Part shown: one piece after another, positions 15,731-31,961 of the stretch | How positions within the stretch are numbered: the stretch's first letter is position 1 | How the letters are laid out: each line of letters opens with the position of its first letter | Assembly (NCBI GenBank): GCA_016196885.1 | Contig: JACPWU010000025.1 | Coordinates: 4,471 to 36,470 of the forward strand | Length of the DNA: 32,000 nt | Direction: 5' to 3' | Origin: Chlamydiota bacterium | GTDB lineage: Bacteria > Auribacterota > JACPWU01 | Position numbers and translations under genes: made by a program | Notes under the pieces: generated by a model | Database searches by the model: none | What the model was told of the DNA's origin: nothing | The model's input: the letters and a program-made list of their open reading frames with translations, nothing else

Positions 15731-17374
15731 ATGAAAAGAAGGTTTCACGGAATTATTTTAGGTATTGGGATTTTGATGATGTTTGCAATCAATGGGCACT
15801 GTGAAGCAGTTCACCCTTGGGCGGTTTGGTCGGCTTCTGACGGAAATGATTTAGAAATTTATGCCTCACATGAGGGAGATAGTTCTTGGAATGTTCCCGA
15901 AAAAATTCATTCGGATAATGCTGTTTCTGATACCTCTCCTGCCATTGTAATTGATTCCACAGGTAAGGCTTTTGTTGCTTGGGTAAGAGAAAATGGAGAT
16001 AAAGAGGAAATTTATTGTTCGAGATGGGATGGTTTACGTTGGTCTTTGGAAGAGCCTGTGGGTGTTCTTCAGGGTGTGCGATTTTCTGTGCCAGCTGTGA
16101 CGGTAGATGACAAAGGAAATCCTTGGATTGTCGCTTCGGGTGTGAAAAATAATGGTCAGGACGAAATTTATGAAACACATCGTACTGTGACGGGTTGGAC
16201 AGCGTGGATGCGTGTGAATCAAGAGGATGCATCTCCAGATGTGGACCCCACCGTGATGGCTTATCAAGATCAAGTTTGGGTCATTTGGAGTGGGTATGAT
16301 GGTGAGAATTATCAACTTTTCGGAAGACATTCCAATGGGAAAAGCTGGACTCAAGAGGAAAAGCTTTTTCAAGGGGGAGGATTTTCGCAGAGTTTTCCTT
16401 CTCTAAGCGTTGAAGGTGGGAAATTCAAGCTTTCTTTTTACAAAAGCGATGAAGGGATGTTTAGCTTTTGGGATGGCCAGAATTGGTCTTTTCCTTCTTC
16501 TGCTACATTTTCGCTAGAAGAAAACTTGATTAACATTTGGAAATCTCAAGCTGTTTATAAAGGTCAGACCGCTTGGTTTGAGGGTCCAGAAAATAGAGGT
16601 GCTTTTAATATTTTACTTAAATCGGATGAGGCTAAAACTTCTACAAAATGGGTTGCTCGTTTGAAGAAGCTTTTTGATATATCAGGAAATGAAGCTTGGG
16701 CGGCCACTGCAAATGTTTACACTGCTTTTGGAGACAGTATTACAGAAGGAGGATATCCTCCTTTTTTACAAAATCGCTTGAGTGGGGCGACGGTTGTAAA
16801 CAGGGGGAGAGGAGGAGAGCTTACGGACGGTGGTTTGAGCCGAATTGGGGGTGTTTTGGCGGCTGATAGTCCTGAGTTCATTCTGATTATGGAAGGAACC
16901 AATGACGCTGGGAATGAGCATTCTCAGGAATCGATTGCTTTTAATTTGGAACAGATGGTTGCCAAAGCAGCAGCTACAGGGACCAAACCCATCCTTTCAA
17001 CCATTACTCCTCGTAAGGACAACCACAATGGAAAAGTGGAAAAGGTGAATGCCCTGCTTCGAGAGTTTGCGGGCTCTAACGGAGTTCCCTTAACAGACAA
17101 TTATGCGGTGATTATTGCCAAACCCATTGCTGAATTTGATAGTTTGTACACGGATCATCTTCATTTCAATAGTGCTGGAAATGACATCATTGCCCAAGAC
17201 TTTTTTGACACGATTAACAGTGTTAAAGGGGGTGGCAGCGGCGGTGGCGGTGGGTGCGGTTCTGTGAAACCCAATTTTCCTTCGAAATGGAATTTGAATT
17301 TGGAACCTTTGTTGTTCTCCATTTTTGTTTTCTTAATTTTGAGAAAAATGAGAAGAGTTTCTAAAGCCCGTTGA
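15731..17374 (+). CDS. secreted repeat-domain + SGNH/GDSL hydrolase protein with a Gly-rich linker and a C-terminal TM/basic sorting-type tail
   Basis: An N-terminal signal peptide (MKRRFHGIILGIGILMMFAINGHCEA) is followed by 4-5 tandem ~45-50 aa repeats (pattern ..W....G..EIY......G..W..PE..). The SGNH blocks are FGDSITEGG (I), GTNDAG (III) and DHLHFN (V). The protein ends with GGGSGGGGGCGS, then NLEP-LLFSIFVFLIL-RKMRRVSKAR. Confidence 0.85.
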   Translation: MKRRFHGIILGIGILMMFAINGHCEAVHPWAVWSASDGNDLEIYASHEGDSSWNVPEKIHSDNAVSDTSPAIVIDSTGKAFVAWVRENGDKEEIYCSRWDGLRWSLEEPVGVLQGVRFSVPAVTVDDKGNPWIVASGVKNNGQDEIYETHRTVTGWTAWMRVNQEDASPDVDPTVMAYQDQVWVIWSGYDGENYQLFGRHSNGKSWTQEEKLFQGGGFSQSFPSLSVEGGKFKLSFYKSDEGMFSFWDGQNWSFPSSATFSLEENLINIWKSQAVYKGQTAWFEGPENRGAFNILLKSDEAKTSTKWVARLKKLFDISGNEAWAATANVYTAFGDSITEGGYPPFLQNRLSGATVVNRGRGGELTDGGLSRIGGVLAADSPEFILIMEGTNDAGNEHSQESIAFNLEQMVAKAAATGTKPILSTITPRKDNHNGKVEKVNALLREFAGSNGVPLTDNYAVIIAKPIAEFDSLYTDHLHFNSAGNDIIAQDFFDTINSVKGGGSGGGGGCGSVKPNFPSKWNLNLEPLLFSIFVFLILRKMRRVSKAR

Positions 17375-20304
17375 AAACGTTTGTTTGGCTTGCAGTGATC
17401 ATTCTCTTGGGGATGATCCTGAGGACTTTTTATTTGGTCACCCCTACAGTGGATTCAGATCAAGCTGTTTTTGGTCTGATGGCCATGCATATTTTAAAAG
17501 GGGAGTTTCCACTTATTCAATGGGGTTTCCCTTACATGTCTTCGGGGGAATCCTTTTTTGCAGCCCCCTTTTTTTATTTTCTGGGGGCTTCTCCTTTTAC
17601 GCTCGACTTAGCTATCGCCATTGAATCTTTGATTTTTGTCTGGCTCATTTTTTTTGTGGGCCGAAGAATCGGAGGCTCTCAAATGGGGCTTCTCTCGGCC
17701 CTTTACGTGGCGATCCCCCCTTCCTATCTCGCCATTCATTGTGTTTTGGCTCGAGGGGCCTACATTGAGACGCTGATTTTGGGGACCCTTGCCTTTTGGA
17801 TGGCCCTTCGCATTTTTTATCCAGAGGGCGGGAAAGACCGGGGACCTCTTTCTTATTTTTTGCTGGGCACCGCTTTTGGCCTGGGCCTTTGGTTTCATTT
17901 TCTGATTATCTTTTTCATGGTACCCATTGGCTTTTTTTTTCTCATCAAGCCCAAAACACTTTTCAGAAAAGAGATCTCACTCTTAGTTTTAGGATTTCTT
18001 TTAGGAAGTCTTCCGTTTTGGGTCCACAATTTTTATCACGGCTTCGAAGGCATTGCCTATCTTTCCAGGCATGAAAAGAGGCATCACACTTTTTGGCAGG
18101 GGTTGTCCCAATATGTGGGAAGGGATCTTTGCATTATCTTAGGCATGTTTCGCGATCATATTCAAACCGCCTTGACTTGGGTGAATGTCCCCTTCATTAT
18201 TTTGTACGCGGCTTTTTTAGTTTATGGTTGGGGCCAATGGCTGAAATCCTTTTTTCACAAAGAGCCTTTGAAGGGGATTGGGCTTGTGCTTATTTTTCTT
18301 CTTTTTTATATCTTGATCGTGGATGAAAGTGAGTACATCGAGAAAGATACACGAAGATATTATGTCCCCCTTTTCGCGGGGCTCCCCCTTCTTTGGGCTT
18401 GGGTGGTTCAATCCTGGTCAAGGCGGTCTCGAGTTCTCAAAATTTCTCTCGTCAGTGCCTTCCTGTTTTTTCATCTCTTCACGAATTTCCGAGAAGCGGC
18501 TGTCTTCCATCCGGATTCGTTCAAACCTTATCAGGAAAAGGTTCGCAAGGAAAAAGAACTGATTCATTTCTTAGAAGAGAAAAATCTTCGCCAAATTAAT
18601 TACGAAGATTATTGGCTGGGATTTCGATTGAATTTCATAGCACAAGAAAAAATCATTTTTGCTCGAACATTCTACGAGCGCTATCGTCCCTATGAAGATA
18701 TTTTGGAGCGCTCAGATCATCCTGTCTTTCTGGATGGGGCCAGCCAAAAATTTGGCCCCCTTTTCAAAATCATCGGGGGGAGTTGCGAGGAAAATCGTGT
18801 GGGAGATTGGAGTGTGTATCATGATTTTGTGGAGCCACAAGGTCGTTATCGTCAAGTCAATCTTCAGAATGCTCACGTTTCTGCCTCTGACCGGACAGAG
18901 GAGGCAAAATATGTTTTGGATCGTGATGCGGAAACCGCATGGACGAGTGGACGGCCTCGCTCGCCTGGGATGTGGGTCCAAATAGACCTGGGAAGGACCT
19001 ATTCTCTGGGCCTCCTGCGGCTTTGGGATCGTCCTCATCATTTTCGGGATACGGCGCTTCAAGTGAGTGTTCAAGTGAGTTTGAATGGCGAGGAATGGAA
19101 AGAGGTCATTCCTCCGACACGGGGAGATTTTTATTATTGGAATGGCCCCAGAATTTACGGTTGGGAATTGGGCTATCGCTCGGAGGCGCGCCTTGGCCCT
19201 GTTCAGGCGCGGTTTATTCGTATCACTGGGCACGAGGCTGATTCTCAGCATCCTTGGATGATCTATGAAATTTTTGTCTATGAGCATGTGGGGGAGGAGA
19301 GGAATGTTAAGGATCAACCTCGGGTCATTCAGGCGATTCAAGAATTGAAATTAGAAAAAGTCTACGCCGATCGCTGGCTGAGCTCTAAAATCAAGGAAGA
19401 CACCCAGGGAAAGGTTCAAACGGTGGAGCCTTTTAGCTATCCCCACTTCTATGGGGAGATGCCAAGCCGCCTCATCGAATGGGGCCCTCATGTAGGCTTT
19501 GCAGTGGAAGATGCGGACGCGGAGCAATTTGAAAAGGAGGCCCAGCAAGAAGGTTTCAACCTCTCTCGTCGAGATTGTGGAAGGTGGAGTCTTTTTTATT
19601 TTTCCCATTGGGGTGGAGAAGAGGAGGAAATGGGAAAGGTCCCCAGTTTTTGGTGGACGGGTTTTGGAATTCTTAAAACCAATAGAAAGTTGAGGAGCGA
19701 GTATTTGGGCATAAGAGCTAGAAAATATGCGGAGAAAGGGGATTGGGCCTCTGCTCTGCGATATGATGAAAAAGCCTTGGAACGTTATTCCAACCATCAA
19801 GGGGTTCGGTGGGAATTGATTCAAGTTTTGGAAAAGCTAGGTCGGCTTGACGAGGCTCAAGAACAATTGGAAGAATTAAAATGGCAAACGGAACCTCGGG
19901 AGAAAATGCCCATTCTCTTTGAAAAGGGAGTCGAATTTTTGGGATTCTCGATCGAGTCTCATGAGGCCCATACGGGTCAGACGCTTCCTATTTATTATTA
20001 TTGGAGATTGAATCAAGATCCAGGATCCGGGATGGGTGTTTTTGTTCATCTGAAAGGCCCGGGCCCTTTGATTCAAGGGGATCATAAATTTTTGGATCGT
20101 AACATGAAAGTGTGGCCGGCCCTGGAGGGGGAGATTTTTTATGAGGAAGAGCTTTTAAAAATTCCAGAAGTCACGCCTCCGGGACAGTACGAAATTTGGT
20201 TGGGTTTATTCGATTTGGGAACCGAGAGGCGCTGGAAGGTCAAGAAGACGGAGCTGAAAGAGAATCAAGGGGCTGTTTTTGTGGGAAGAATCCAGGTAAA
20301 ATGA
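17371..20304 (+). CDS. GT-C glycosyltransferase (GT39/ArnT-like) fused to an F5/8-type-C (discoidin) domain, TPR and a C-terminal beta domain
   Basis: 977 aa. The N-terminal ~380 aa are polytopic, with DSDQAVFGLMAMHIL in the first loop. A discoidin-like segment (DRDAETAWTSG...WVQIDLG...ARFIRI...IYEIFVYE) lies at about 18880-19290, and a TPR-like segment (EKGDWASALRYDEKALE...LGRLDEAQ) at about 19700-19870. The TTG start overlaps the upstream stop codon (TTGA). Confidence 0.85.
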   Translation: MKTFVWLAVIILLGMILRTFYLVTPTVDSDQAVFGLMAMHILKGEFPLIQWGFPYMSSGESFFAAPFFYFLGASPFTLDLAIAIESLIFVWLIFFVGRRIGGSQMGLLSALYVAIPPSYLAIHCVLARGAYIETLILGTLAFWMALRIFYPEGGKDRGPLSYFLLGTAFGLGLWFHFLIIFFMVPIGFFFLIKPKTLFRKEISLLVLGFLLGSLPFWVHNFYHGFEGIAYLSRHEKRHHTFWQGLSQYVGRDLCIILGMFRDHIQTALTWVNVPFIILYAAFLVYGWGQWLKSFFHKEPLKGIGLVLIFLLFYILIVDESEYIEKDTRRYYVPLFAGLPLLWAWVVQSWSRRSRVLKISLVSAFLFFHLFTNFREAAVFHPDSFKPYQEKVRKEKELIHFLEEKNLRQINYEDYWLGFRLNFIAQEKIIFARTFYERYRPYEDILERSDHPVFLDGASQKFGPLFKIIGGSCEENRVGDWSVYHDFVEPQGRYRQVNLQNAHVSASDRTEEAKYVLDRDAETAWTSGRPRSPGMWVQIDLGRTYSLGLLRLWDRPHHFRDTALQVSVQVSLNGEEWKEVIPPTRGDFYYWNGPRIYGWELGYRSEARLGPVQARFIRITGHEADSQHPWMIYEIFVYEHVGEERNVKDQPRVIQAIQELKLEKVYADRWLSSKIKEDTQGKVQTVEPFSYPHFYGEMPSRLIEWGPHVGFAVEDADAEQFEKEAQQEGFNLSRRDCGRWSLFYFSHWGGEEEEMGKVPSFWWTGFGILKTNRKLRSEYLGIRARKYAEKGDWASALRYDEKALERYSNHQGVRWELIQVLEKLGRLDEAQEQLEELKWQTEPREKMPILFEKGVEFLGFSIESHEAHTGQTLPIYYYWRLNQDPGSGMGVFVHLKGPGPLIQGDHKFLDRNMKVWPALEGEIFYEEELLKIPEVTPPGQYEIWLGLFDLGTERRWKVKKTELKENQGAVFVGRIQVK

Positions 20305-20311
20305 AACATCC

Positions 20312-23026
20312 ATGACCAAAGCCAATTCAGGTCCATCTTCTTTCAAATCTTTTCTGTCGGACAGTTTTTATGTTCTGACACTCTTTTTTCTTCCTTTCAT
20401 CCGATACGGAAAAATGATGGCTTCCTGTCTTGCGGGTCCGTTATTTTCAACAGCAGACATGAGTGGCATCCATTCCAACCAGCTCTTCTTTTTTGAAAAT
20501 TTAAAGAGAGGAATCCTATCCCTCTGGAATTCCCATGTCTCTTCAGGATTTCCCATTTTTGGAGATATTCAAAATGCCCTTTTTTATCCGCTTCAGGGTC
20601 TTTTTTTCCTATTGATGAAACAAGGCGTGTTGAAACTTCATGCAATGCAAATGATGGAAATTTTTCATTACTCCTTGGCCGGAATTTTTTCTTATGTTTG
20701 CGCTCGCTCTTTCAAATGGAGTCGTTTCGCCTCATTTGTTACAGGTCTTTCCTACATGTTCTCAGGTTTCTTGTGGGCCCATGGAGCTCAGGCAAATACG
20801 GTAGAGGCTGCTGCTTGGCTGCCTCTGATTTTTATGTGTATGCATCAAGCATTCGAGAAAAAAAGTTTTGGTCACGCCCTCGCTTGTGGTTTCGCATGGG
20901 CCCTTTCCTTCCTGGCGGGGGATTCCCAAGGTACCTTTTGTGTTTTTTTCTTTCTGGGGCTTTATTTTATTTTTCAGTGCGTTTGGGAAATAGGAGACCG
21001 TGGATTTTCAATGAGGATTCTTTCATATCCTTTCCTTTTTGGCCTTGTAGGATTGACCTTTATGGGTGTTGCAGCCATTCAGCTCTTACCCTCTCTTGAA
21101 TGGGCGAGGAGGGCCTCACCCCTTTCGCTTCCTTTTTCGAACCTCACGGCGCTTTCTCTGAAACCCCGTTATTTCCTCAGTTTTCTCATTCCCTTTTTTG
21201 TCCCGGATGGGGAAATAGGATTAAAGGAGGGATACGTCTATTTGGGGCTTTTGCCGCCTTATTTTGCCTTTGCTTCTCTTCTGTATGTCAAAAAGGAAAG
21301 AAAAATCCTTTTTCTTGCCCTGATGGCTCTTTTGTCTTTTTTCTTGTCAATGGGGAGCGATAGTTTCATCCATTTTCTTTTCTATCGTTTCATTCCGGGG
21401 AGTTCTTTTTTTTCACCTCCTCGATTTATTTTTCTCTTCAGTTTTTGCGCGGCCCTTCTGGCGGGATGTGGGATAGAATTTCTCATTCGAGAAAAAGGAA
21501 GGCTGCCCTTCTTAAGTTTACTTTTAGGGGGGCTTGGCATCTCTCTAGGAGTAGGGTTCTGGATTCAAATTTCAGGAGGGCCTCTTTCAAGAGGGGATTT
21601 GCTGGATCGTTATTATTTATTCCTTCTTGTTTTGGCGCTTTCCTGTTTGGCCTTAAAAGTTTTTGAGAAGGGAAAATCTTCCCGAGGGAGCCTCTTCTTC
21701 CTGACTTTTATTTTGCTCTTTGATTTGTTGAGTGCGACCTCCTCCTTTCAAAAAACTGAAAGTACTTTGTCTTGTCCCATCTCAAATTCTCACGATTTTT
21801 TGCAAGGATCTCGGGGTCTTTTCCGTGTCAAAGATGAAATCGGACTTTGGAAGCCTCTGAGGGATGAACAGGCTCCTCTCATGGACCGTGTGGAAGGGAA
21901 TGAGGAGAGTTCTGCACGTTTAGATTTATATTCTCGTTTCCTCGCAAAAACCGTTGAGAACGCCCGGCTTCTGGATTTCTTGAACACCCGATTCTGGGTG
22001 ACGTCAGACGAGCCTATGAATGAGTCCTGGTCAAAAAAATATCGTCGGGTCAAATTGAGTCGCATTCATTCCAGAAAAGAATTAGAAATTCACTGGCCTC
22101 GAGAAAAGGATGTCATAAACTCTATTCAGCTCGTTTCTTGTTTAGAAAATGCCCAGGACATTCGTCAGGGGACAACCGTTGCTCAATTACAAATAGTAGA
22201 TCATAAGGGTAAATTCTACACCTTCCCCATACGGGCAGGACTAGAGGCGTCCGAGGGGATGTATGATCGCCCGGATATTTTTTTGAAAATCAAGCACCAT
22301 CGAACCCTGATTGCCTCTTCCTCAAATGTCGAGGGAGAAACTTATCAGGCCCATCAGTATCTGGCGCATTTCGATCTTCCGAAACCGATTCGGCCTGTGA
22401 GGGCTGTTTTTCATTATCTTGTTGCCGAGGGTGATTGGATGGTTCAGTCGGTGACGTTGAATGATGTGAATATTTTTGACTCCAAAGATCGTTTCAAGAA
22501 AGTGGCCCCTCAAGTTTTTGAAAATCAATATGTCCTGCCGCGCGCATTTTTAGTCCCCCGGGCAGAAGTGATTCCGAGTAAAGAAGATATTGAAAAAGAG
22601 CTTTGTGATTTAGAACCCTCTGAAACGGTTCTGCTTTCGAAAGCGCCGCCAGGCTATGTTCCTCTTCCCCTTATTTCTGAAAACTCAAAAAAGACAGAGG
22701 TTGAAATTAAGAAGTATTCTCCTGAAGAAATTTTGCTTGAAACAGATTGCCTTCGTCAGGTTTTTTTAGTCATAAGCGAGAATTTTTATCCAGGATGGAA
22801 AGCGGAAGTAGACGGCCAAAAAGCGGAAATTTACCAGGCCAATCTTTCTTTCAGAGCCCTGCTTTTAGAGAAAGGCAAACATACCATTCGAATGGTTTTT
22901 CACCCGGCCTCATTTAAGTGGGGATTAAGACTTTCTCTGGGCTCTCTTTCTTTTTTAGGGCTTTATGCGATTTTTTCTCTTCTGATGAAGAGACGTTGGG
23001 CGTCCCATTTAAAATCCGAGTCCTAA
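20312..23026 (+). CDS. YfhO-family membrane protein (GT-C fold glycosyltransferase)
   Basis: 904 aa. The polytopic N-terminal half contains LWNSHVSSGFPIFGDIQNALFYP. The C-terminal ENFYPGWKAEVDGQKAEIYQANLSFRALLLEKGKHTIRMVF followed by a final TM helix is the classic YfhO ending. Confidence 0.85.
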   Translation: MTKANSGPSSFKSFLSDSFYVLTLFFLPFIRYGKMMASCLAGPLFSTADMSGIHSNQLFFFENLKRGILSLWNSHVSSGFPIFGDIQNALFYPLQGLFFLLMKQGVLKLHAMQMMEIFHYSLAGIFSYVCARSFKWSRFASFVTGLSYMFSGFLWAHGAQANTVEAAAWLPLIFMCMHQAFEKKSFGHALACGFAWALSFLAGDSQGTFCVFFFLGLYFIFQCVWEIGDRGFSMRILSYPFLFGLVGLTFMGVAAIQLLPSLEWARRASPLSLPFSNLTALSLKPRYFLSFLIPFFVPDGEIGLKEGYVYLGLLPPYFAFASLLYVKKERKILFLALMALLSFFLSMGSDSFIHFLFYRFIPGSSFFSPPRFIFLFSFCAALLAGCGIEFLIREKGRLPFLSLLLGGLGISLGVGFWIQISGGPLSRGDLLDRYYLFLLVLALSCLALKVFEKGKSSRGSLFFLTFILLFDLLSATSSFQKTESTLSCPISNSHDFLQGSRGLFRVKDEIGLWKPLRDEQAPLMDRVEGNEESSARLDLYSRFLAKTVENARLLDFLNTRFWVTSDEPMNESWSKKYRRVKLSRIHSRKELEIHWPREKDVINSIQLVSCLENAQDIRQGTTVAQLQIVDHKGKFYTFPIRAGLEASEGMYDRPDIFLKIKHHRTLIASSSNVEGETYQAHQYLAHFDLPKPIRPVRAVFHYLVAEGDWMVQSVTLNDVNIFDSKDRFKKVAPQVFENQYVLPRAFLVPRAEVIPSKEDIEKELCDLEPSETVLLSKAPPGYVPLPLISENSKKTEVEIKKYSPEEILLETDCLRQVFLVISENFYPGWKAEVDGQKAEIYQANLSFRALLLEKGKHTIRMVFHPASFKWGLRLSLGSLSFLGLYAIFSLLMKRRWASHLKSES

Positions 23027-24044
23027 TCTTGCTGCAAATCCCTGTAAAAGGATATTGAGATAGCTCGATAGATTTTACCCATTTGTAATTTTTTGACGGA
23101 ATTTTGCCTTTTACCCATCGGCCTAAATAAATATCAAGAGATTCTATGAGATGGGTGTAAACATGTTTCACTTGTCTTATTTTTTCTCCTGCTGAAATTA
23201 AAATACCTATTTCTTGATGTGAATATTTTTGAAGTAATTTTGATCCTTCTTTTTTTTCTGAGACGCGAAAGTTAGGAAATTCCCAAAGGCCTCCCAAAAG
23301 ACCTTTCAGAGGTCTCTGATGAATTAAAATTTTGTCTTCTTTCCAAATGATGCCTCCCACTGTTTTAATCGCTTTTTGTACAACGCGTTTCATCAGGGGA
23401 GGGTAATCAGCTTGGAGCCCTTTTGCAAAGGCCTGGCAATTTTTTTGGAGAGGACAAATCAGACACTGCGGATTCTGGGGGGTACAGATTGTTGCCCCTA
23501 ACTCCATCATGGCTTGATTAAAATCTCCCGCTCTTCCGTGAGCCAAGATTTTTTCCGCCTGTTCTTGAATTTTATCTTTGTCATCTGGGGTGAGAAAAAG
23601 TCGTGAAATGACACGTCGAACATTCCCGTCTACAACAGGTGTGTCTTCATCAAACGCAATGCTGGCAATAGCACTTGCGGTGTAGGGGCCAATCCCTGAA
23701 AGTTGAATCAATTCTTGTGCCGATGTGGGAATTTTCCCCTGATATTTTTGAACAATTTCTTGTGCCGCCTTGTGAAAGTTTCGTGCTCTTGCGTAATAGC
23801 CAAGTCCTTCCCAAAAAGGGAGAATATCATCCACTGTGGCCTGAGCCAGTTTTTGAATCGAAGGAAACCTTTTCATCCACCGCTCATAATAAGGAATCAC
23901 GGTCTGAACTTGCGTTTGCTGAAGCATAATCTCCGAGACCCAAATGGCATAAGGATCTTTCGTTCGCCGCCAAGGGAGGTCCCGCTTATGCTGGTCGTAC
24001 CAGGAAAGAAGAGAGTGTTGGATATTTTGGGTGTTTTGCGACAT
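22914..24044 (-). CDS. mutY: A/G-specific adenine DNA glycosylase MutY
   Basis: 376 aa with DLPWRRTKDPYAIWVSEIMLQQTQV, HhH-GPD LSGIGPYTASAI, the 4Fe-4S cluster C-x6-C-x2-C-x5-C (CTPQNPQCLICPLQKNC), and a C-terminal NUDIX-like domain. Confidence 0.95.
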   Translation of the reverse strand: MSQNTQNIQHSLLSWYDQHKRDLPWRRTKDPYAIWVSEIMLQQTQVQTVIPYYERWMKRFPSIQKLAQATVDDILPFWEGLGYYARARNFHKAAQEIVQKYQGKIPTSAQELIQLSGIGPYTASAIASIAFDEDTPVVDGNVRRVISRLFLTPDDKDKIQEQAEKILAHGRAGDFNQAMMELGATICTPQNPQCLICPLQKNCQAFAKGLQADYPPLMKRVVQKAIKTVGGIIWKEDKILIHQRPLKGLLGGLWEFPNFRVSEKKEGSKLLQKYSHQEIGILISAGEKIRQVKHVYTHLIESLDIYLGRWVKGKIPSKNYKWVKSIELSQYPFTGICSKIRTRILNGTPNVSSSEEKKSHKALKKKESPEKVLIPT

Positions 24045-24136
24045 TTTTGGACCTCATTCTCACAAATTCATTTCTTTTTAGCTATGAGAAAATATATCTC
24101 TTTCTCTAAGAATAGGTTAAGAAAATAATTTTTTAG

Positions 24137-24266
24137 GTATATGCACTTGACTTAAAGATGTCGTCCATTTGTAGTCGCCCGATTTATCGGGCTATCCACG
24201 GATTGCCCCATGAATGGGGCGACTACACTTAACGGATCAAGGATATTTGAGTCAAGTGCATATGCC
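24137..24266. repeat. REPIN-like element, copy 4 (core 24171-24226) in the same long outer palindrome as copy 2, but with the core inverted
   Basis: The core is GTAGTCGCCCGATTTATCGGGC-TATCCACGGATT-GCCCCATGAATGGGGCGACTAC, which is the reverse complement of the copy 2 core with 2 mismatches in 56 nt. The flanks (ATGCACTTGACTT..TGTCGTCCATTT on the left, CTTAACGGATCAAGG..AGTCAAGTGCAT on the right) are collinear with the copy 2 flanks. Confidence 0.8.
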
Positions 24267-24332
24267 TTTAATTTTTTTTGACTTTTTTGACTCGCTTTGT
24301 GTCTCTATATTTGTAACAAAGAGAGGGGCTCC

Positions 24333-27300
24333 ATGAATCATATTAAATACCTTCAAAAAGGGGTTTCTTTAGCCCTTTCTCTTTCCCTTCTTTTTTATGA
24401 TGTCTCCTTGGGTTCGGCTCAAGAATCCCAGGGAATGTTGGCGCCTCTTCCTCTGGAAAAGGCCCATTCTGTTGAAAAGCTAAATCTAGATTTGAATCCA
24501 TCTCTCAAAGAACTTCAAATTCCATCGGAGTTTGGAGAAGTGATTGAACGTGAGATTATCCCTGATCGGCCTCTTCTTTTTATTATTGAAGACATTCATT
24601 GTAATCCAGAGGCGCAAGAAAATATCAAAAGGATTTTAGAAATATTAGAAAAACAGGTAGAAAAAAAAGAAGGGATGGGTGATGGAGGAAGAATGAGGGA
24701 AGAAGGACGCGGGGGGAAGGACGCAAAAGAACTTGAGTCGTCTATCGTCCATCGTCCATCCTCTCTTTTTCATGTCTTTTCTGAGGGAGCCGAAGGTCCC
24801 ATGGAACTGTCTTTTTTTACCGCTTTCCCTGATAAGGATGCTCTTGCACGAGCTACTGAAAAATTCCTTCAGAAAAGTGACATGGACGGTGTGGAATCTT
24901 TTCTGGTGACAGAGGGGCCTGGGAAAACTGAGGGAGTAGGTGTTGAAGATTTAAAAGCCTATGTCAAAAATGTGGAGTACATGGGAGATTTTCTTGAAGA
25001 AAAGGAACTTCAAGAACATGTTTGGCAGAATTTGGAAATGGTTTTTAGAAAGTTGAGGGAGAAAATTTATTCTAAGGCGTTAAAATTTTTTTTTGAACAA
25101 AAACAAAAATACAGTGACTTTAAAATAGATCTCACCACTTATATTCAATCTCTTGAAAAAATATATCAAGAAACCTTTCAAAAAAAGTTTGGAGCTGAGA
25201 AGCCGTTTTTGAGGCGCTATCTCAAGCTTAACCGCTTAGAGACGCGTCTTGACTCTAGCAGGATTGAACAGGAATATTTGAAGTTTCTTGAAACCTTAGA
25301 GAAGAAACTTCCTCAAGAAGAATCTGCTTTGATTCTTCGTCATGTCCTGGAGCGCAGATTAGGACGTGAAAGCGATCAAGATCATTATACCTTTTTGAGT
25401 CGATACGCTCATCTTGTTAAAGGAGCCGAGATTCCAAATTTGAAATTGCTCTTCAGACAGATGAAACTTTTGAAAAAGCTTTCGTGGAAAGATCTGGAAG
25501 AAGAGATCCATCAAGTTGAAGCGGAGCTGACCACGATTTTGACAAAGACAGAACAGGAAAAGAATTTGGTTGCCTTGGAAGGTGATTATGAAATTTTGAA
25601 ACGAATTATGAGCTTGGAAGGAAAGAGAGAAGACATCAAAACCGTCTATCGTCACTCGTCGTCCGTAGATCGTACAGAAAACCGTTTCGTCACAGAATTT
25701 GTTGCCAAACTCAAAACTTTGTATCTACGAACGACGAACGACGAGCAACGAACGACAGCTTTTGAATCCCCCGACTTCGGAGACATTTTTGAAAAGGCAG
25801 AAAAATTCTATTCGCAGGTTCTCGACCGCGATGAAATTTTTATGAAGAATGCGCTTCATGTTCTTCAAGAGAAAAAGCTTTCTTATGCTGCTTTGGTGAT
25901 GGGTGGTTTTCATACATCGGGAGTTGAAGAGACCCTTAAAAAGGCGCATATTGGCTATTGCGTGATTACTCCCCGAATGACTCATTCCGATGACCGAAGT
26001 GTTTATTATCAGAAAATGAAGGAAATATTTGAGGTTCTGGGGGGAATGGATGATGGCCTCAAGAATGCCTCTTTTCCCACACTGAAAAAGATTGCGCTTC
26101 ATCATTTTATGACTCAAGCTCAGGCGATGGGCAGAGTGATGATTGAAGAAGCTAGAATTTTGCCCAAAGGTTTCTTTGATGCTTGGGAAAGCAAAGCCCA
26201 AGACCTTGCTTCTGTGATCGAAGCATTGGAAAAAAGCCATCCTGAATCGGCAACCGTTTCAGGAGGTGAGTTTACTCTACAAACCCTTTTAGATCTGACA
26301 GAGCTTTCAGCTCCTGAATTAAGAACCCTGCTTCAAGACAATCAAGTTCGCCCCTTTTTAGAACGTTACATTGAAAATCTTTTGGCGTTCTCCGGGCATG
26401 AAGGGAAAGATTGGCGAGTGCTTTTGGGAAATGAAGAAGAGCCTCCTCAATTTCCTCCTTCAGGTGGAGGCATTGTAAGTGCGATTAGAAATTCAGGTGC
26501 AGGAAACTGGATGGTGCTTTTGGCCCTTTTACCTTGGTTGTGGATGACGGCTTGTAAAGGAAATCGAGAGACAAGTTCAACTTCATTAGAACGCGCTCCG
26601 CCTGTCGCTTCACCCGTTCAAGCACCTCAGTCTTTAGAACTTCCGCCTATGCCAGCTTCAGAGCCCTCGGTTTCTCCTGAAAAGGTAGCTCCTGCATTGA
26701 ATCTTCCGTCCATGCCCACTGAAAGCTCTAATCAAACCATTATTCCAAATACCCAAGAGCTAAAAGATAGATTTTGGGCGCAGGAAAATGGGACGCTTCA
26801 GCTAAGTGTGGGCGCCGATGGTTGGGTGACTTTGACTTATACACTCACAGGCGATTACCTAGGAACCAAAGTATCTATCCCAAGCGCTTTTCGAAACTCA
26901 GGTGTGATAGAAGTGGAAATGAAGGGTCCTGGATCTGTTGAAATTAAGCCGAATGATCAAGGAGGCCCCTTCGTCAGCGAAAACCAAAAACTTCAAGTTA
27001 ATCCAAACGACTACGGAGGAAGTGTAAGCAGTCTGACTGTTGGCTTGGTGCAAAGTAAATTAGGAAACAGCAGTGGAACGGTCAAACTTCGCTTTGTTCA
27101 TCGTCCTTCAGGTGGAGTCATTATTGCTCTTAAAGAGTGGATGTTAAAATACATCGTCCCCTTAAAATGGGCGCCCTCTTACGACACGCGCATTGCACCT
27201 CTCCTGGAAGAATTTCTTTTTGGATTGCCTCTTGTTGTTGTGAGTTTACTAGGTTTTGACCCTACTTGGGTCCTGGCAGCCAATTTTATTTCCAGATCTC

Positions 27301-30300
27301 TCTTCTTGCTTCCTCAACACCAAGGAGGGAGATGGATTGCAGGTTTAGTGGCTCTTTCGAGTTTTATCTTCACTTCAATTCCCATTTATTTTCATTTGTC
27401 GCTGATTGTTTTGCCCGTTGTATGGATGATTGCTATTGCAATTCATACGAAAATCAATAAAGGTGACCAACCCAGATTCTTTTCTTCACGATTTTTACGG
27501 GCAGAGGCCGTTTTTTCTGCGGCTCTTCTTTTCTTGACCAGTTTAACTCAACCTTTGGTGAACGCGGGTGCTGCTTCTTCTGTTCAGATCTATTCTATTG
27601 ATTCAAAAACTGTTTTAGCGTTGAAGAAGGGCTTATCGGGGATTGGGAAATATCTTAGCCCTCAAGTTGGAATTCACAGACAGACGGGAGCTCCGCAGGA
27701 TTCTGTGCAGATTAATTCCCAAGGAAATATGATTGGGAGTCCTGCCAATTATGGAGCGCCTTCTAAGGATGCAACTTATCTGCCTCTGCTTTTGCATTTG
27801 GCTCAGGGCAACCCTCTTTTGAGTGATATGGGGGTCACTCGCCAGCAAGCTCTGAATTTTGCCCTTCAAGAACTTCAATCCTTGAGGCAATTTCAAAGGG
27901 ATTATGAAGGCACAGAAATTTATGCAGGTTTTTTCCCTTGGAATGAATACAAAGAGGATGGTTCTCGTCGCCTGTCTGAATATGGGGGCCGTCGCATGGT
28001 TCCCTCATTGGATAATGGCCAGCTCAGTTTTGCCCTTGCCTCTATTGCAGGGGCTTTTTGGAATGCTCAAACAGGAACACTGGAAAAACAAGTTCAAGAT
28101 TTGGCTGTAGACATTTTAAATCATCAGGACTATGGAAAACTTGTCAATCCTCAAAATGGACTTCTCTATGCTGAATGGGATTTTCAGCGGCATGGTCAAC
28201 CTCTAGATTCTCGGATGGGTACGCTTTGGACAGAATGGTCTATTCCTCATCTCTTTGCGCTTTGGTCAGGAAAAATAAAAGAAGAGAGCTGGGCAAGATT
28301 CACGAATCCCACATTTGAATATCACTTGGAAGCAGGTCGTGTAATTGATATGCCCCAAGGATGGATTTTCTCGGCTCATGAGCTTTGGTATTTACAGTAT
28401 GTTCCGCGATTAATCATGAAATCAAAGCTAGCTCCCCTCTATCGAAATTATCTTTATCTCCATGCTCAACATGCCATAGAAAAAAATATGCCTGGATTTG
28501 TGGCTACGGAATACAAGCGCAGTGGCTATAAGCAAGGAGGTATCGATGTCCCTAAAAAAGGTCATGGGGGTGAAATTCGGTCTTCGATTGATGATGAAAC
28601 AATGGCCGCTCCTTATGGAACAGCCCTTCTTTCACTGATCGATTTACGCATGCTTCCCTGGGTTCAATACCTCTTTGAGCAACCTGGGGTGGTTCAACGC
28701 TATGGACCAGTGACCTCTTTTACGAGGGCAGAGGGGGCCTCTAACATGCACACAGCTGACAACACTTTTTCTACTGCCAATGCTTTAGCCGAAGGATGTA
28801 CCATTGCCAATAACCTGCCCGGTGGGGTCGAAGCTGGAATTATCAGTTATTTCAAAAATCAATATGGTTTAAGCGAGGCAGATTTAATTCGTGCCTTTAA
28901 TCTTCATGCAGATTTGATTCTAAAAAGGCTCGGTCTGTCTGAATTTCGAGCGGTTCAAGCTGCGGAAATTCCTCTTCCTCCTGAAAAGAGAGATTATTCT
29001 GTCGAGCCGCGTGCCGAAAAGAAAATGCCAGACGCTGTTAATGTGATGGATCGTTTGAAACCTCAAGGGGGTTGGTATCATGGCAAGAATATTCACGTTC
29101 CTGCGGAATATCGGTCTTGGGCATCAGAAATAGGCCAAACTTGGGTGATGAAAAAGGGTGAGATTGTTGCGGACTATCAAATCTCTTCGGATACTCCTTG
29201 GGCCTGGTTGGGAACCAAAATAGAACCCACTGTCTCGATTGGAGAGGCAAAATATATTTCTCTATGGGTTCCGGTAGACCTGAGAGGTGAGATATGGAAA
29301 ATAGAATTAAAGAATAGCAAAACCGAACTGGCTTCTCGCATCCAAGTCAATACAGATGATCAAGGTGTAGAAACCAGTGCTGACGGAAAATGGAAAAGGC
29401 TTGTGTATCCTGTCAATTTGGATGAGTCTTTAACCAGACAAGAAGGTTTGGAGTTTAACTACTTTGCTCTTTCGACTGAAAAACCTTCAGGGCGTTTTCA
29501 CATTCGAGATATTCAGATTTATAAAAACAAGCCTGTTTCTGGAGGTACACCTGTTCGTGATGAGGCAAGTCCTGCTTCTGACAGAGGGACTGCTTCATCT
29601 AAATCTCAGAGTTCTGTCACCCTTCCCGCCATGCCAGGAGAAGCACCCACAGCAAAATCTATTTCGCTTTCTGAAGTCCAGGCTGCTTATCGGGAAATTC
29701 AGATTTTGAATGGGACTAATCCTAGTGAGGCCCGTCTGAAATTGGGTCAATTGGTGGGGCGAATCAATGCAGGAGTCACAGGAATTCCATCTGGGCAAGA
29801 AGAAAAGTGGAACGCCTTTTTTCAACAGCTTAAAGAGGCGTATCAACAGGCGGGTGGAACATCTAGATCTACGCCTTCCGCTCTGTCCCCGGCTCGGGCA
29901 AGTTCAACTCCACAGTCTGCTCCTACGCCGGCGGCGATTCCTGCAAAAACACCTGCTGGAGTGATTATTCCGACGGTAGATGAACTGAGAAAAAAATGGT
30001 GGGCCCAAGAAAATGGAACACTTCAAGTGGCTGTAGATTCAAATACGGGCTGGGTGACGTTGACTTATAGCCTCACAGGCGAGTTTATGGGGACTAAGGT
30101 TTCTATTCCCGCTCAGCTTCAAAATGGTGTCATCGAAGTTGAAATGAAAGGGCAGGGTTCTGTCGAGATTAAGCCCAATGATCAGGGAGGTCCCGTGGTT
30201 AGACAGGGACAGAAACTTCAGGTTCCTGCACAAGGGGTCGGTAGTCTGACAATCGGACTGGTTCAGGGTAGACTGGGCAACAGCCGTGGTTCTGTGCAAC

Positions 30301-31961
30301 TTCGTTTTACGCATCGGACAGGCGGTGGTGTGATTCCATTCCTCAAGCGTTGGGTTTTGAAGCATGTTCCTGAACAATGGATGAATTGGCGGATTTATTA
30401 TGACACTCAAGTTGCTCCAAAACTAGAAGAAGTACTTTTCATTGTGCCTGCCCTTGCAACGGCTCTTTTGGGACTGAATCCTTTCTGGGGGATAGGAATC
30501 AATGCGCTTTCGAGAATTGCCTTTGTCTTTTCACATCCCAGTGGTCAAAGAAAAGATCCTGCATGGATCGCACTCTCAAGTTTTGTCCTGACATCTCTTC
30601 CTTTTCTTTTAGGCTTTTTGTTTCCTTTATCGTCAGCGATACTTGCTTTGGGACTTGTGCTAACGGTTATCCCTGCCGCCATGGTTCATCGTGCGGTGAA
30701 TTTAAGAGCCAGACCGAACTTTGAAGAATTTGTGAAATGGTTTGATAAAAACTATCGGGTTGGCAAAAATCTCCAGTATTTTGCCTTCTTCCTGACACTC
30801 GATCAGATGAATTCCGCTTACTTTCTCACTTTAAACGACGCCATTCGAGCATTTTCCCATAAAAAAGACCTCAGTCAAAATGAAGAAAGTGAGCTTTACG
30901 ATTTCGTGATTGATGCCATCATTGCGGCCCGTCATCCGGAGTTGATTCAAGGGAAGGAACGCCCCTTGGATTCTATCATCGTTCGGATGGAAGCCTGGGG
31001 AGCTTTGAATATATTTGGGCGTGATTTGAATATGGAGCCCTTGGCTCTCGTAGATATTGAGAAAACGATGAGAGAAGCGCGGTTTTTTAATTATCAAAAT
31101 GCGAATCTCCGGGTACAGATTGGATCAAAAAAAGTTTCTTGGCAAACCAGGGCTCAGATTACACAGCGTTATTTATACGAAGGAAATGAGTATGAGCTCG
31201 AGGCAACGCCTCTTCCACAATTATCTTCTTTCTCTTCGGAGGCGGTTGGGGCGAATCTTTTTGAAATCACAAAGGTCGAAGATTACCCCATCCTTTTTGC
31301 TTATCTTGTCTTAAGACAGCGTTTGAGAGATATTCAAGCAAAACTTTTGAAGGAAACAATTTCTGACCCTTATCAAGCTGGTTCAGCGCCTATTTTGCCC
31401 CTCATTGACTTCACCTTGCTGGAAAAAAGTCAAGAGGGCCTTCGTTTAGAAGAAATTATTCAGCAAGTTCCTGGTTTTGCAAAGCCCATTGTGACAGACC
31501 TTAATCGAACGGAGGAAGAATTGAGAGAAGCCTTGATGGAGATCGGAACGGATCCCCATCAAGTTCATATCATTTCTCTTAAAGGTGATCAAAATCCAGG
31601 AGAGGCGCTTATTGAAAAAGTGAAGGCCTTATGGAAAAAGGAACACCCCGAACAAGATTTAGATTTTCGAACCGTTCGATTTTTGGGACATCAGGAACAC
31701 AAGCGTGAGTTTAAGACCGTGATGCAAAGACATGGTGTTAAAGATGCCTATGGGGATGATTTGGCGGTTGTTTTTGCCATCGCTTGCGGAGATCGGGAAG
31801 CCATTCGAAGAGCGTTCGAGAAACTGGGCATGAACTCTCGCCAAATAGATCAACTTCTGGCCGGCAGTGGAGACCTGAAACCCATTCCCGTCCTTGCTTC
31901 CATGAAAAATCAGTTAGAGCGATTCCGCAAGACCGCCGAAATTACTCGGCTCAGTATGTAA
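24333..31961 (+). CDS. giant (2,542 aa) multidomain secreted/membrane protein of unknown function
   Basis: This is an uninterrupted ORF. I place the start at ATG 24333 (GAGAGGGG Shine-Dalgarno sequence at 24321-24328, signal-peptide-like MNHIKYLQKGVSLALSLSLLFYDVSLGSAQE) rather than the track's upstream TTG at 24297. See the findings for the domain content. Confidence 0.85.
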   Translation: MNHIKYLQKGVSLALSLSLLFYDVSLGSAQESQGMLAPLPLEKAHSVEKLNLDLNPSLKELQIPSEFGEVIEREIIPDRPLLFIIEDIHCNPEAQENIKRILEILEKQVEKKEGMGDGGRMREEGRGGKDAKELESSIVHRPSSLFHVFSEGAEGPMELSFFTAFPDKDALARATEKFLQKSDMDGVESFLVTEGPGKTEGVGVEDLKAYVKNVEYMGDFLEEKELQEHVWQNLEMVFRKLREKIYSKALKFFFEQKQKYSDFKIDLTTYIQSLEKIYQETFQKKFGAEKPFLRRYLKLNRLETRLDSSRIEQEYLKFLETLEKKLPQEESALILRHVLERRLGRESDQDHYTFLSRYAHLVKGAEIPNLKLLFRQMKLLKKLSWKDLEEEIHQVEAELTTILTKTEQEKNLVALEGDYEILKRIMSLEGKREDIKTVYRHSSSVDRTENRFVTEFVAKLKTLYLRTTNDEQRTTAFESPDFGDIFEKAEKFYSQVLDRDEIFMKNALHVLQEKKLSYAALVMGGFHTSGVEETLKKAHIGYCVITPRMTHSDDRSVYYQKMKEIFEVLGGMDDGLKNASFPTLKKIALHHFMTQAQAMGRVMIEEARILPKGFFDAWESKAQDLASVIEALEKSHPESATVSGGEFTLQTLLDLTELSAPELRTLLQDNQVRPFLERYIENLLAFSGHEGKDWRVLLGNEEEPPQFPPSGGGIVSAIRNSGAGNWMVLLALLPWLWMTACKGNRETSSTSLERAPPVASPVQAPQSLELPPMPASEPSVSPEKVAPALNLPSMPTESSNQTIIPNTQELKDRFWAQENGTLQLSVGADGWVTLTYTLTGDYLGTKVSIPSAFRNSGVIEVEMKGPGSVEIKPNDQGGPFVSENQKLQVNPNDYGGSVSSLTVGLVQSKLGNSSGTVKLRFVHRPSGGVIIALKEWMLKYIVPLKWAPSYDTRIAPLLEEFLFGLPLVVVSLLGFDPTWVLAANFISRSLFLLPQHQGGRWIAGLVALSSFIFTSIPIYFHLSLIVLPVVWMIAIAIHTKINKGDQPRFFSSRFLRAEAVFSAALLFLTSLTQPLVNAGAASSVQIYSIDSKTVLALKKGLSGIGKYLSPQVGIHRQTGAPQDSVQINSQGNMIGSPANYGAPSKDATYLPLLLHLAQGNPLLSDMGVTRQQALNFALQELQSLRQFQRDYEGTEIYAGFFPWNEYKEDGSRRLSEYGGRRMVPSLDNGQLSFALASIAGAFWNAQTGTLEKQVQDLAVDILNHQDYGKLVNPQNGLLYAEWDFQRHGQPLDSRMGTLWTEWSIPHLFALWSGKIKEESWARFTNPTFEYHLEAGRVIDMPQGWIFSAHELWYLQYVPRLIMKSKLAPLYRNYLYLHAQHAIEKNMPGFVATEYKRSGYKQGGIDVPKKGHGGEIRSSIDDETMAAPYGTALLSLIDLRMLPWVQYLFEQPGVVQRYGPVTSFTRAEGASNMHTADNTFSTANALAEGCTIANNLPGGVEAGIISYFKNQYGLSEADLIRAFNLHADLILKRLGLSEFRAVQAAEIPLPPEKRDYSVEPRAEKKMPDAVNVMDRLKPQGGWYHGKNIHVPAEYRSWASEIGQTWVMKKGEIVADYQISSDTPWAWLGTKIEPTVSIGEAKYISLWVPVDLRGEIWKIELKNSKTELASRIQVNTDDQGVETSADGKWKRLVYPVNLDESLTRQEGLEFNYFALSTEKPSGRFHIRDIQIYKNKPVSGGTPVRDEASPASDRGTASSKSQSSVTLPAMPGEAPTAKSISLSEVQAAYREIQILNGTNPSEARLKLGQLVGRINAGVTGIPSGQEEKWNAFFQQLKEAYQQAGGTSRSTPSALSPARASSTPQSAPTPAAIPAKTPAGVIIPTVDELRKKWWAQENGTLQVAVDSNTGWVTLTYSLTGEFMGTKVSIPAQLQNGVIEVEMKGQGSVEIKPNDQGGPVVRQGQKLQVPAQGVGSLTIGLVQGRLGNSRGSVQLRFTHRTGGGVIPFLKRWVLKHVPEQWMNWRIYYDTQVAPKLEEVLFIVPALATALLGLNPFWGIGINALSRIAFVFSHPSGQRKDPAWIALSSFVLTSLPFLLGFLFPLSSAILALGLVLTVIPAAMVHRAVNLRARPNFEEFVKWFDKNYRVGKNLQYFAFFLTLDQMNSAYFLTLNDAIRAFSHKKDLSQNEESELYDFVIDAIIAARHPELIQGKERPLDSIIVRMEAWGALNIFGRDLNMEPLALVDIEKTMREARFFNYQNANLRVQIGSKKVSWQTRAQITQRYLYEGNEYELEATPLPQLSSFSSEAVGANLFEITKVEDYPILFAYLVLRQRLRDIQAKLLKETISDPYQAGSAPILPLIDFTLLEKSQEGLRLEEIIQQVPGFAKPIVTDLNRTEEELREALMEIGTDPHQVHIISLKGDQNPGEALIEKVKALWKKEHPEQDLDFRTVRFLGHQEHKREFKTVMQRHGVKDAYGDDLAVVFAIACGDREAIRRAFEKLGMNSRQIDQLLAGSGDLKPIPVLASMKNQLERFRKTAEITRLSM
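24662..24771 (+). repeat. ~110-nt imperfect palindrome lying in-frame inside the giant ORF
   Basis: GGATGGGTGATGGAGGA (24673-24689) pairs with TCGTCCATCGTCCATCC (24745-24761): 14 Watson-Crick pairs, 2 G-T pairs and 1 mismatch. The A-run and T-run flanks extend the pairing. The segment encodes the low-complexity peptide EGMGDGGRMREEGRGGKDAKELESSIVHRPSS. Confidence 0.5.
25644..25759 (+). repeat. second in-frame palindrome inside the giant ORF, sharing the GTCTATCGTC motif with the first
   Basis: CTCGTCGTCCGTAGAT (25655-25670) pairs with ATCTACGAACGACGA (25723-25737) as 7 bp, one mismatch, then 7 bp. The right arm continues as an ACGAACG-type 7-mer repeat. Confidence 0.5.
26757..27470 (+). repeat. 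intragenic module, copy 1 (beta-sandwich-like domain + CPBP-like TM domain)
   Basis: The module runs ELKDRFWAQENGTLQLSV...VEMKGPGSVEIKPNDQGGP...VKLRFVHRPSGGVI, followed by a TM region. It aligns by eye along its whole length with 29978-30710 at both the protein and DNA levels. Confidence 0.85.
29978..30710 (+). repeat. intragenic module, copy 2 (beta-sandwich-like domain + CPBP-like TM domain)
   Basis: The module runs ELRKKWWAQENGTLQVAV...VEMKGQGSVEIKPNDQGGP...VQLRFTHRTGGGVI, followed by a TM region. It is a paralogous copy of 26757-27470. Confidence 0.85.

Follow-up and report, generated by a model that had tools for sequence, protein, structure and literature searches.

Ordinary CPBP proteins are stand-alone membrane proteins of about 200-350 amino acids (aa), and proteases of this kind act in CAAX processing, bacteriocin immunity, peptide-signal maturation and C-terminal sorting. 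MARTX toxins and the giant open reading frames (ORFs) of Omnitrophota are mosaics that combine conserved ends, variable internal enzymes and a built-in protease, and are found in host-dependent lineages. Here, we analyze a gene whose product resembles those giants in its overall plan and carries two copies of a CPBP-like membrane cassette as its putative built-in protease. The gene lies on the forward strand of a 32,000-nucleotide stretch of DNA (hereafter the window; positions 4,471 to 36,470 of contig JACPWU010000025.1, GenBank assembly GCA_016196885.1) from a metagenome-assembled genome (MAG) labeled Chlamydiota bacterium and placed by GTDB in Auribacterota. By sequence comparison, the protein is a member of an undescribed family of giants (about 1.4-7 thousand aa, kaa; Chlamydiota, Omnitrophota, Elusimicrobia and related uncultured lineages) that is defined by a TIKI/ChaN-like head followed by variable enzyme 'cargo'. 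The reading that we moderately favor, based on motifs, profiles and structural models, is that of a genuine multi-pass mosaic in which a TIKI-like head is combined with an exported-looking GH162 unit and with divergent CPBP cassettes that flank this unit and lack the motif-1 Arg. The kinds of component domain are known; what appears to be new is a divergent, unannotated CPBP-like branch that is used as a repeated cassette in giant proteins, always together with a TIKI-like head. Unlike MARTX toxins, the window protein has neither RTX repeats nor a cysteine protease domain, and any secretion, autoprocessing or delivery of it would be hypothetical. Unlike the >20-kb ORFs described for Omnitrophota, the TIKI-headed giants measure 2-7 kaa and stay well under that size; three papers on giant Omnitrophota ORFs make no mention of CPBP, CAAX or TIKI.

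A sequence-only reading of the window had described one uninterrupted ORF of 2,542 codons that begins with a signal-like N-terminus and a mostly helical domain and continues with a hydrophobic segment, duplicated modules with a glycosidase and a β-rich domain between them, and an unplaced C-terminal domain. The coordinates of this ORF proved exact and the layout correct. The frame is open from 24297 to 31961 on the forward strand with zero internal stops, and the ATG at 24333, preceded at a distance of 7 bases by the ribosome-binding site GAGAGGGG, is the likely start. The protein is 100% identical over 2,516 aa to HYS08_08395, a partial NCBI entry from a Chlamydiae bacterium MAG, and G+C content is uniform along the gene. 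Two paralogs from another Chlamydiae MAG (HYS07) share its ends, each within a single ORF and each with two cassettes: P0002 (3,150 aa) matches the N-terminal region aa 5-712 (E 1e-288) and aa 1984-2542, and P0003 (2,304 aa) has the same N-terminal region (E 0) and the same C-terminal domain. We take the gene product to be a real membrane protein of 2,542 residues. Pfam and NCBIfam gave no significant match to the whole protein or to eight sub-segments of it. The C-terminal domain was found in Chlamydial paralogs only, including an isocitrate-lyase giant (P0005); it has no Pfam match and no Protein Data Bank (PDB) sequence match, and its profile gave nothing credible against the PDB.

The head is common to the 44 matches of the whole-protein search (about 40 other giants, with aa ~50-570 as the shared part) and stands at the N-terminus of 53 retrieved proteins. 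Eight giants that were retrieved solely through a cassette profile also bear it N-terminally (E 1e-61 to 1e-120), which argues that head and cassette belong together. The named sources are MAGs of Chlamydiae, Omnitrophica, Elusimicrobia, Endomicrobia and Auribacterota, and 'bacterium F11'. Among the cargo, Pfam recognizes enzymes of central metabolism (isocitrate lyase with malate synthase, FBPase, PGI, PGM, aldolase, transaldolase, hexokinase, PPDK, glutamate dehydrogenase and UDP-glucose dehydrogenase), as well as an ARMT1-like phosphatase, Fic, an M48 peptidase, an ABC1 kinase, a methyltransferase and an intein-like piece. The metabolic enzymes occur in head-bearing sisters of 1.6-4 kaa (P0005, P0009, P0012, P0022, P0028-P0030, P0033, P0034, P0041 and P0065). 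The Omnitrophota giant P0060 carries its Fic cargo between two CPBP-like cassettes, and the Chlamydial paralog P0006 has a weak, sub-cut-off match to an intein splicing domain at aa 1198-1270 (E 6.5e-5) and a weak NB-ARC match. The sequence-only reading had proposed a search for the pieces as separate genes: the GH162 unit does occur as a stand-alone protein, and the roughly 20 relatives of the cassettes lie almost all inside giants.

The two modules of the window protein, each consisting of a linker, a β-rich domain and a transmembrane (TM) block, are diverged copies, as had been claimed, with 49% identity over 268 aa (E 5e-80). All six positions and the spacings of the three CPBP motifs that had been read in them are exact: the Glu-Glu pair (EE 959-960), H996 within LLPQH and HTKIN (1038-1042) follow one another at 37 and 42 residues in copy 1, and the pair at EE 2032-2033, H2068 within FVFSH and HRAVN (2119-2123) at 36 and 51 residues in copy 2. 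Of the four to five helices proposed for each block, hydropathy supports four hydrophobic helices in both, and an extra helix (aa 1054-1076) follows block 1 only. The β-rich domain copies have no homolog outside the window protein among the 74 retrieved proteins, and copy 1 has no Pfam match.

Since the motif pattern is conserved over 19-24 homologous blocks, which align at 20-45% identity, it is not a product of chance. Across these blocks the motif-3 His is invariant; the cassette alignment A5 keeps the first Glu of motif 1, the motif-3 Asn, one Pro and one Tyr at 90% conservation or more, and it has two further invariant positions, a Phe four residues ahead of the motif-2 His and, past that His, the Arg of a G-x-R turn. 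The conserved polar positions fall within predicted membrane helices. Almost every block has the motif-2 His, whose column differs by one between two subtypes; copy 2 has FVFSH, and copy 1 has FLLPQH, its His displaced by one residue. A canonical motif of the EExx[F/Y]RG type is found in the distant members P0007, P0059, P0060, P0065, P0071 and P0072, in the forms IEELLYRG, IEEAIFRG, IEEGLFRG, LEEVLFRV, KEEIIYRG and LEESIFRG. Judged against these relatives, the Chlamydial cassette copies appear simply to have lost the motif-1 Arg.

On the combined strength of these motifs, of profile matches among relatives and of a structural model, we consider it likely that the cassettes are remote, divergent homologs of the CPBP/Rce1 superfamily. 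A profile of seven cassette copies (A3), searched against 1.84 billion representative proteins, retrieved 22 proteins (E<=1e-3). With few exceptions these are giants of 2,000-7,000 aa, and they often hold two or three cassettes apiece; the short, repetitive matches P0067, P0069, P0073 and P0075 look spurious. Rce1-like PF02517 matches 7 of 19 aligned members (best E 3.6e-4), with the next Pfam families at no more than 2 of 19, and among the NCBIfam models CPBP_JDVT_MrtJ matches five of the 19 and MroQ two. The match of P0060 to PF02517 reaches 21.0 bits against a cut-off of 22.4, and the matches of P0060 and P0065 span positions 11-92 of the 93 in the Pfam profile and involve the same residues as the cassette profile. 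An AlphaFold2 (AF2) model of cassette 2 (m4d49e0705c67), built from a 19-sequence alignment (predicted local distance difference test, pLDDT, 88; predicted template modeling score, pTM, 0.82), consists of one short helix at the N-terminus followed by four long ones. The first long helix holds the Glu-Glu pair, the His of motif 2 comes directly behind the second and HxxxN toward the end of the fourth, a placement which suggests that the motif residues lie toward the same membrane face. In a fold search of BFVD, CAAX proteases of giant viruses are the top match and 5 of the top 32.

The cassettes thus resemble CPBP/Rce1-like proteins (PF02517; NCBIfam MrtJ, MroQ) in a four-helix core in which Glu-Glu opens helix 1, [F]xxxH closes helix 2 and HxxxN lies within helix 4, at spacings of 36-37 and 42-51 residues, and in the extent of the relatives' sub-threshold matches over the whole Pfam model. 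They differ in that the window copies are unmatched and lack the motif-1 Arg, in a family-specific N-terminal 'GGVI..LK.W' helix and the invariant G-x-R after the motif-2 His, and in being repeated inside proteins of 2-7 kaa rather than standing alone. Further searches added little. The alignment A5 returned nothing in a homolog search, most likely because hydrophobic words swamped the candidates; a synthetic CPBP consensus found nothing in plasmids by tblastn, and a synthetic protein nothing in viral contigs, where a degenerate EELxFRG DNA pattern met unrelated genes only. An unverified human RCE1 sequence found nothing in the PDB, and an hhalign comparison with it, to which we give little weight, aligned motif 1 alone (E 0.0037, probability 9%).

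The N-terminal domain had been described as mostly helical and about 700 aa long. A large domain is indeed present; what that description missed is its probable identity, since we predict that the head is likely a TIKI-type hydrolase (a protease or esterase). Its N-terminal segment is signal-peptide-like, as had been read from the sequence, with a hydropathy peak of 1.49, and family members start similarly. The head's candidate catalytic residues are D87-x-H89, E151, R499 and H527 (in GGFH). In the head alignment A2, H89, E151, R499, the G-G-x-H527 motif and a Pro are invariant and D87 is nearly so, and the 2His/2acid constellation (D87-x-H89, E151, H527) is present. With the TIKI superfamily (ChaN PF04187, TraB/PrgY, erythromycin esterase and the MARTX effector RRSP) the head shares an acid-x-His, a Glu and a second His after Gly-Gly; in short members of the family of giants the Glu follows the acid-x-His by 28 residues, before the late His. 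RRSP and Bcr135 carry the TIKI arrangement as 2His/2Glu (PMC6254334). PF04187 matches 4 of 15 head members (best E 2.9e-6, sub-threshold) and also P0063 and P0045 (the latter at E 3.2e-5, 24.5 bits against a cut-off of 27.7), DUF5694 matches one member, and the window head itself has no PF04187 match. The head thus differs from known TIKI proteins in that its Pfam matches are sub-threshold and confined to relatives, and in a helical insertion of ~300 aa that splits its two halves. An AF2 model (pLDDT 78) has seven strands, with each motif at the end of a β-strand and the ~300-residue insertion between the halves. A search for related loci in a collection of genome contigs turned up none for the head.

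The domain between the cassettes had been called six-hairpin-glycosidase-like, a call that is strongly supported and can be sharpened: by profile match and predicted active site, it is a GH162 endo-β-1,2-glucanase. Homologs of aa 1091-1830 exist as stand-alone proteins of 500-950 aa, most with N-terminal signal peptides. A profile of GH162 homologs (A4) matches TfSGL of Talaromyces funiculosus (PDB 6IMU, clan GH-S) with E 9e-64 over about 440 positions, and 8XUJ with E 8.7e-20. PF26157 (SGL_GH162) is precomputed for the 100%-identical database protein P0001 and for 9 of 12 stand-alone homologs; a local Pfam scan of the region found no match. The candidate catalytic residues E1301, H1349 and D1476 align with E262, H316 and D446 of TfSGL and are invariant or nearly so in A4. 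In TfSGL, E262 is the general acid and D446 the general base, and a role for H316 has been described (PMC12102758). GH162 is described as almost exclusively eukaryotic (PMC12102758), which makes the bacterial clade notable. Unlike TfSGL, with which it shares the conserved catalytic trio, the window domain is bacterial, fused to a C-terminal β-rich domain and embedded in a giant membrane protein. This carbohydrate-binding-module (CBM)-like, β-rich domain accompanies GH162 in stand-alone homologs of 700-950 aa and has no Pfam match; hhalign finds it unrelated to the β-rich domains that precede the cassettes.

A further comparison is the very large GH189 protein devoted to β-1,2-glucan, a multi-pass protein of the inner membrane. 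Like it, the window protein holds an (α/α)6 domain of the SGL clan within a large protein. Unlike it, the window protein has no GT84 or GH94 domain, its (α/α)6 domain is of the GH162 type with hydrolase-type residues, and its membrane segments are CPBP-like cassettes. Stand-alone bacterial GH162 proteins with signal peptides occur in many metagenomes (P0046-P0057; locus L001, 8001-10703). In the loci L001 and L002, the stand-alone GH162 gene has as neighbors a gene for a 3,361-aa protein and those for polyphosphate kinase, Ppx and a ROK kinase. None of three family profiles matches the 2,533 aa of the 3,361-aa protein that are visible.

How these parts may be arranged across the membrane can be read from charge. 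Lys and Arg (K/R) are more numerous after TM0, the hydrophobic segment that follows the head, than before it, which suggests that TM0 is oriented out-to-in. TM0 ends in a lipobox-like 'LWMTAC', and the paralog P0004 has '...SFMGC' at the equivalent site; we rejected a working lipobox because the charge bias suggests the out-to-in orientation. K/R counts place the flanks and the B-C loop of both cassettes on one side, and the K/R-rich side is classically the cytoplasm; the pattern is consistent with export of the head and with an in-to-out course of the fifth helix. Directly after cassette 1, the chain reads RFFSSRFLR-AEAVFSAALLFLTSLTQPLV-NAGA/ASS (slash, predicted cleavage site), and in a BLAST alignment LTQPLVNAGAAS pairs with LSSPLINVHAAE, where the hydrophobic leader (signal peptide) of the stand-alone P0046 ends. 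This correspondence, like the protein's membership in a wide family of giants, had escaped the sequence-only reading. Because of this alignment, the GH162 unit resembles a secreted enzyme that was taken up along with its signal sequence, which speaks for export of the unit and possibly for cleavage at the predicted site AGA/A.

We propose that the N-terminal signal exports the TIKI-like head and that TM0 would return the chain across the membrane. Cassette 1 would then sit in the membrane with its catalytic face toward the K/R-rich side, and the signal-like fifth helix would export the glucanase unit, that is, a formerly stand-alone secreted enzyme (GH162 plus β-rich domain) that may have retained its signal-peptide-like helix. 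There, the glucanase may trim a β-1,2-glucan-type envelope or periplasmic glycan. The CPBP cassettes would anchor the chain and would probably cut a peptide bond close to the membrane, whether of the giant or of a partner.

Several observations weigh against this reading of a multi-pass mosaic with CPBP cassettes. The cassettes' assignment is affected most: PF02517 matches neither the whole protein nor the isolated window cassettes, the NCBIfam CPBP models match neither cassette, and all family-level CPBP matches, those of relatives included, fall under curated cut-offs. No Rce1 appeared in PDB sequence searches that started from the profiles A3 and A5 or from P0060 by itself, a Foldseek comparison of the cassette model with the PDB found none either, and the BFVD matches are individually non-significant (best E 0.34). 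The PF02517 search and the Foldseek check had both been proposed along with the original CPBP call; the call fails the PF02517 search on the window copies and is supported indirectly, by the full motifs and the sub-threshold Pfam and NCBIfam matches of their relatives. Within motif 1, the Arg is missing from both window copies (EEFLFG, EEVLFI), as had been noted from the start, and some paralog cassettes have Thr in place of the second Glu. For the head model, a Foldseek search of the PDB gave neither a TIKI structure nor any other significant match, probably because the helical insertion swamps the comparison. Finally, no hydrophobic segment lies between the supposedly exported glucanase and cassette 2, though the K/R bias puts the ends of both cassettes on the same side. 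Either cassette 2 inserts contrary to its charges, or the fifth helix is a leftover and the glucanase is not exported. The number of TM segments between head and GH162, one in P0002 and six in the window protein, also gives the two proteins a different parity.

The loss of the motif-1 Arg and the replacement of the second Glu are what would be expected if the cassettes derive from CPBP proteases and are now pseudo-enzymes, membrane staples that tether soluble domains much as APH-1 does in γ-secretase. This alternative, which we regard as unlikely but the most serious of those considered, would also account for the even helix count of each cassette, which leaves the flanking domains on an unchanged side, and for the two or three cassettes per protein that flank cargo such as Fic in P0060 and GH162 here. 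A purely structural anchor, however, is not expected to conserve catalytic residues, and the first Glu, both His and the Asn (Asp in P0065) are kept over about 24 cassettes at 20-30% identity. Since it is exactly the catalytic residues that stay conserved, we lean slightly toward cassettes that still cleave peptide bonds. A second alternative, that the cassettes are an unrelated four-helix membrane domain whose E...H...HxxxN pattern resembles CPBP by convergence or chance, draws on the lack of any CPBP model or structure match at a curated or significant threshold and on the hhalign comparison in which only motif 1 of the unverified human RCE1 sequence aligned. We consider it quite improbable: two independent libraries, Pfam and NCBIfam, each rank CPBP first among the members, the Pfam alignments run from motif 1 to motif 3, distant members bear the full EExxFRG signature, and the best-ranked BFVD matches are enriched in CAAX proteases. 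That an assembly chimera or a hidden frameshift has fused TIKI-like, CPBP, secreted GH162 and second CPBP genes is hardly credible: the source is a MAG, and a signal-like helix persists inside the ORF where stand-alone GH162 homologs have signal peptides of their own, but the gene runs for 7.6 kb without a stop codon at even G+C, eight unrelated giants also combine head and cassettes, and a chimeric join is very unlikely because P0002 and P0003, from a different MAG, unite the same ends in the same order in single ORFs.

Table 1. Features of the giant gene and its product in window coordinates (a slash marks a predicted signal-peptide-type cleavage site).
Feature	Position	Strand	Details
Whole gene	24333..31961	+	2,542 codons + stop codon
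Signal-peptide-like segment	24333..24425	+	aa 1-31; Lys-containing start, VSLALSLSLLF, ...GSA/Q
TIKI/ChaN-like hydrolase head (predicted)	24450..26252	+	aa 40-640 with ~300-aa helical insertion
Hydrophobic segment TM0	26496..26555	+	aa 722-741, NWMVLLALLPWLWMTAC; hydropathy
β-rich domain copy 1	26715..27104	+	aa 795-924; paralog of aa 1870-1995
CPBP-like four-helix cassette 1	27105..27479	+	aa 925-1049; E959/E960, H996, H1038, N1042
Fifth helix, internal signal-peptide-like	27492..27560	+	aa 1054-1076, AEAVFSAALLFLTSLTQPLVNAGA/ASS; hydropathy
GH162 endo-β-1,2-glucanase domain (predicted)	27660..29012	+	aa ~1110-1560, approximate bounds; A4 profile, PF26157
β-rich (CBM-like) domain after GH162	29250..29777	+	aa ~1640-1815; conserved with GH162 in stand-alone homologs
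β-rich domain copy 2	29940..30317	+	aa 1870-1995; paralog of copy 1
CPBP-like four-helix cassette 2	30318..30722	+	aa 1996-2130; E2032/E2033, H2068, H2119, N2123
C-terminal domain, function unassigned	30780..31958	+	aa 2150-2542; in Chlamydial P0002 and P0003 only, last ~220 aa in P0005

The giant gene had been described as sitting next to a glycan locus. Such a locus does lie upstream, with GT4, LPG-synthase-TM-like, two GT2, GDSL/BNR, PMT_2-discoidin-TPR and YfhO genes and, farther upstream, genes for sugar-nucleotide enzymes; an opposite-strand mutY and a 290-bp spacer part the two. A functional tie between giant gene and glycan locus is possible. The mutY ORF (22914-24044; HhH-GPD and NUDIX_4 domains) shares ~110 nucleotides (22914-23026) with the 3' end of the YfhO-like gene (20312-23026). 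Two unusual gene fusions lie within the glycan locus: a 977-aa protein that joins PMT_2 (GT-C), F5/8 type C (discoidin) and TPR domains (17371-20304), and a protein of 697 aa in which a GFO/IDH/MocA oxidoreductase is fused with an NAD-dependent epimerase (8793-10886). Small genes in or beside the locus (71-499, 2801-4012 and 7264-7692) encode Fic/DOC, AAA_14/DUF4143 ATPase and PIN-domain proteins.

The spacer between mutY and the giant gene contains a 157-nucleotide nested inverted repeat (24123-24279) with outer arms of 37 and inner arms of 28 nucleotides, which folds as one long hairpin (folding free energy, dG, -79 kcal/mol; z -11.4 against shuffled sequences). It has no Rfam match and no second copy within the window, and an Rfam scan of the entire window found nothing. 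The repeat could be an element akin to a miniature inverted-repeat transposable element, or a regulatory or terminator structure.

The placement of GH162 in bacteria, both as a secreted stand-alone enzyme and embedded in a giant protein, points to β-1,2-glucan-type glycans in the envelope biology of the organisms concerned. For the family as a whole, a more speculative view, which we rate as improbable at present, is that TIKI-headed giants form an unrecognized class of modular membrane polyproteins in host-dependent lineages that cut themselves to release or position their cargo. Embedded CPBP proteases, and perhaps the TIKI head, would cut the chain at the membrane, and interchangeable enzyme cargo would be freed or positioned there. 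Such a system, if real, would amount to a bacterial counterpart of viral polyprotein processing or of MARTX cargo delivery, built on an intramembrane protease. Many sister giants embed glycolytic, gluconeogenic or glyoxylate enzymes. If the CPBP-like cassettes are active, the giants would be self-contained processing machines, and the cassettes may provide an entry to the function of unannotated giant ORFs in Omnitrophota, Chlamydiota and similar lineages.

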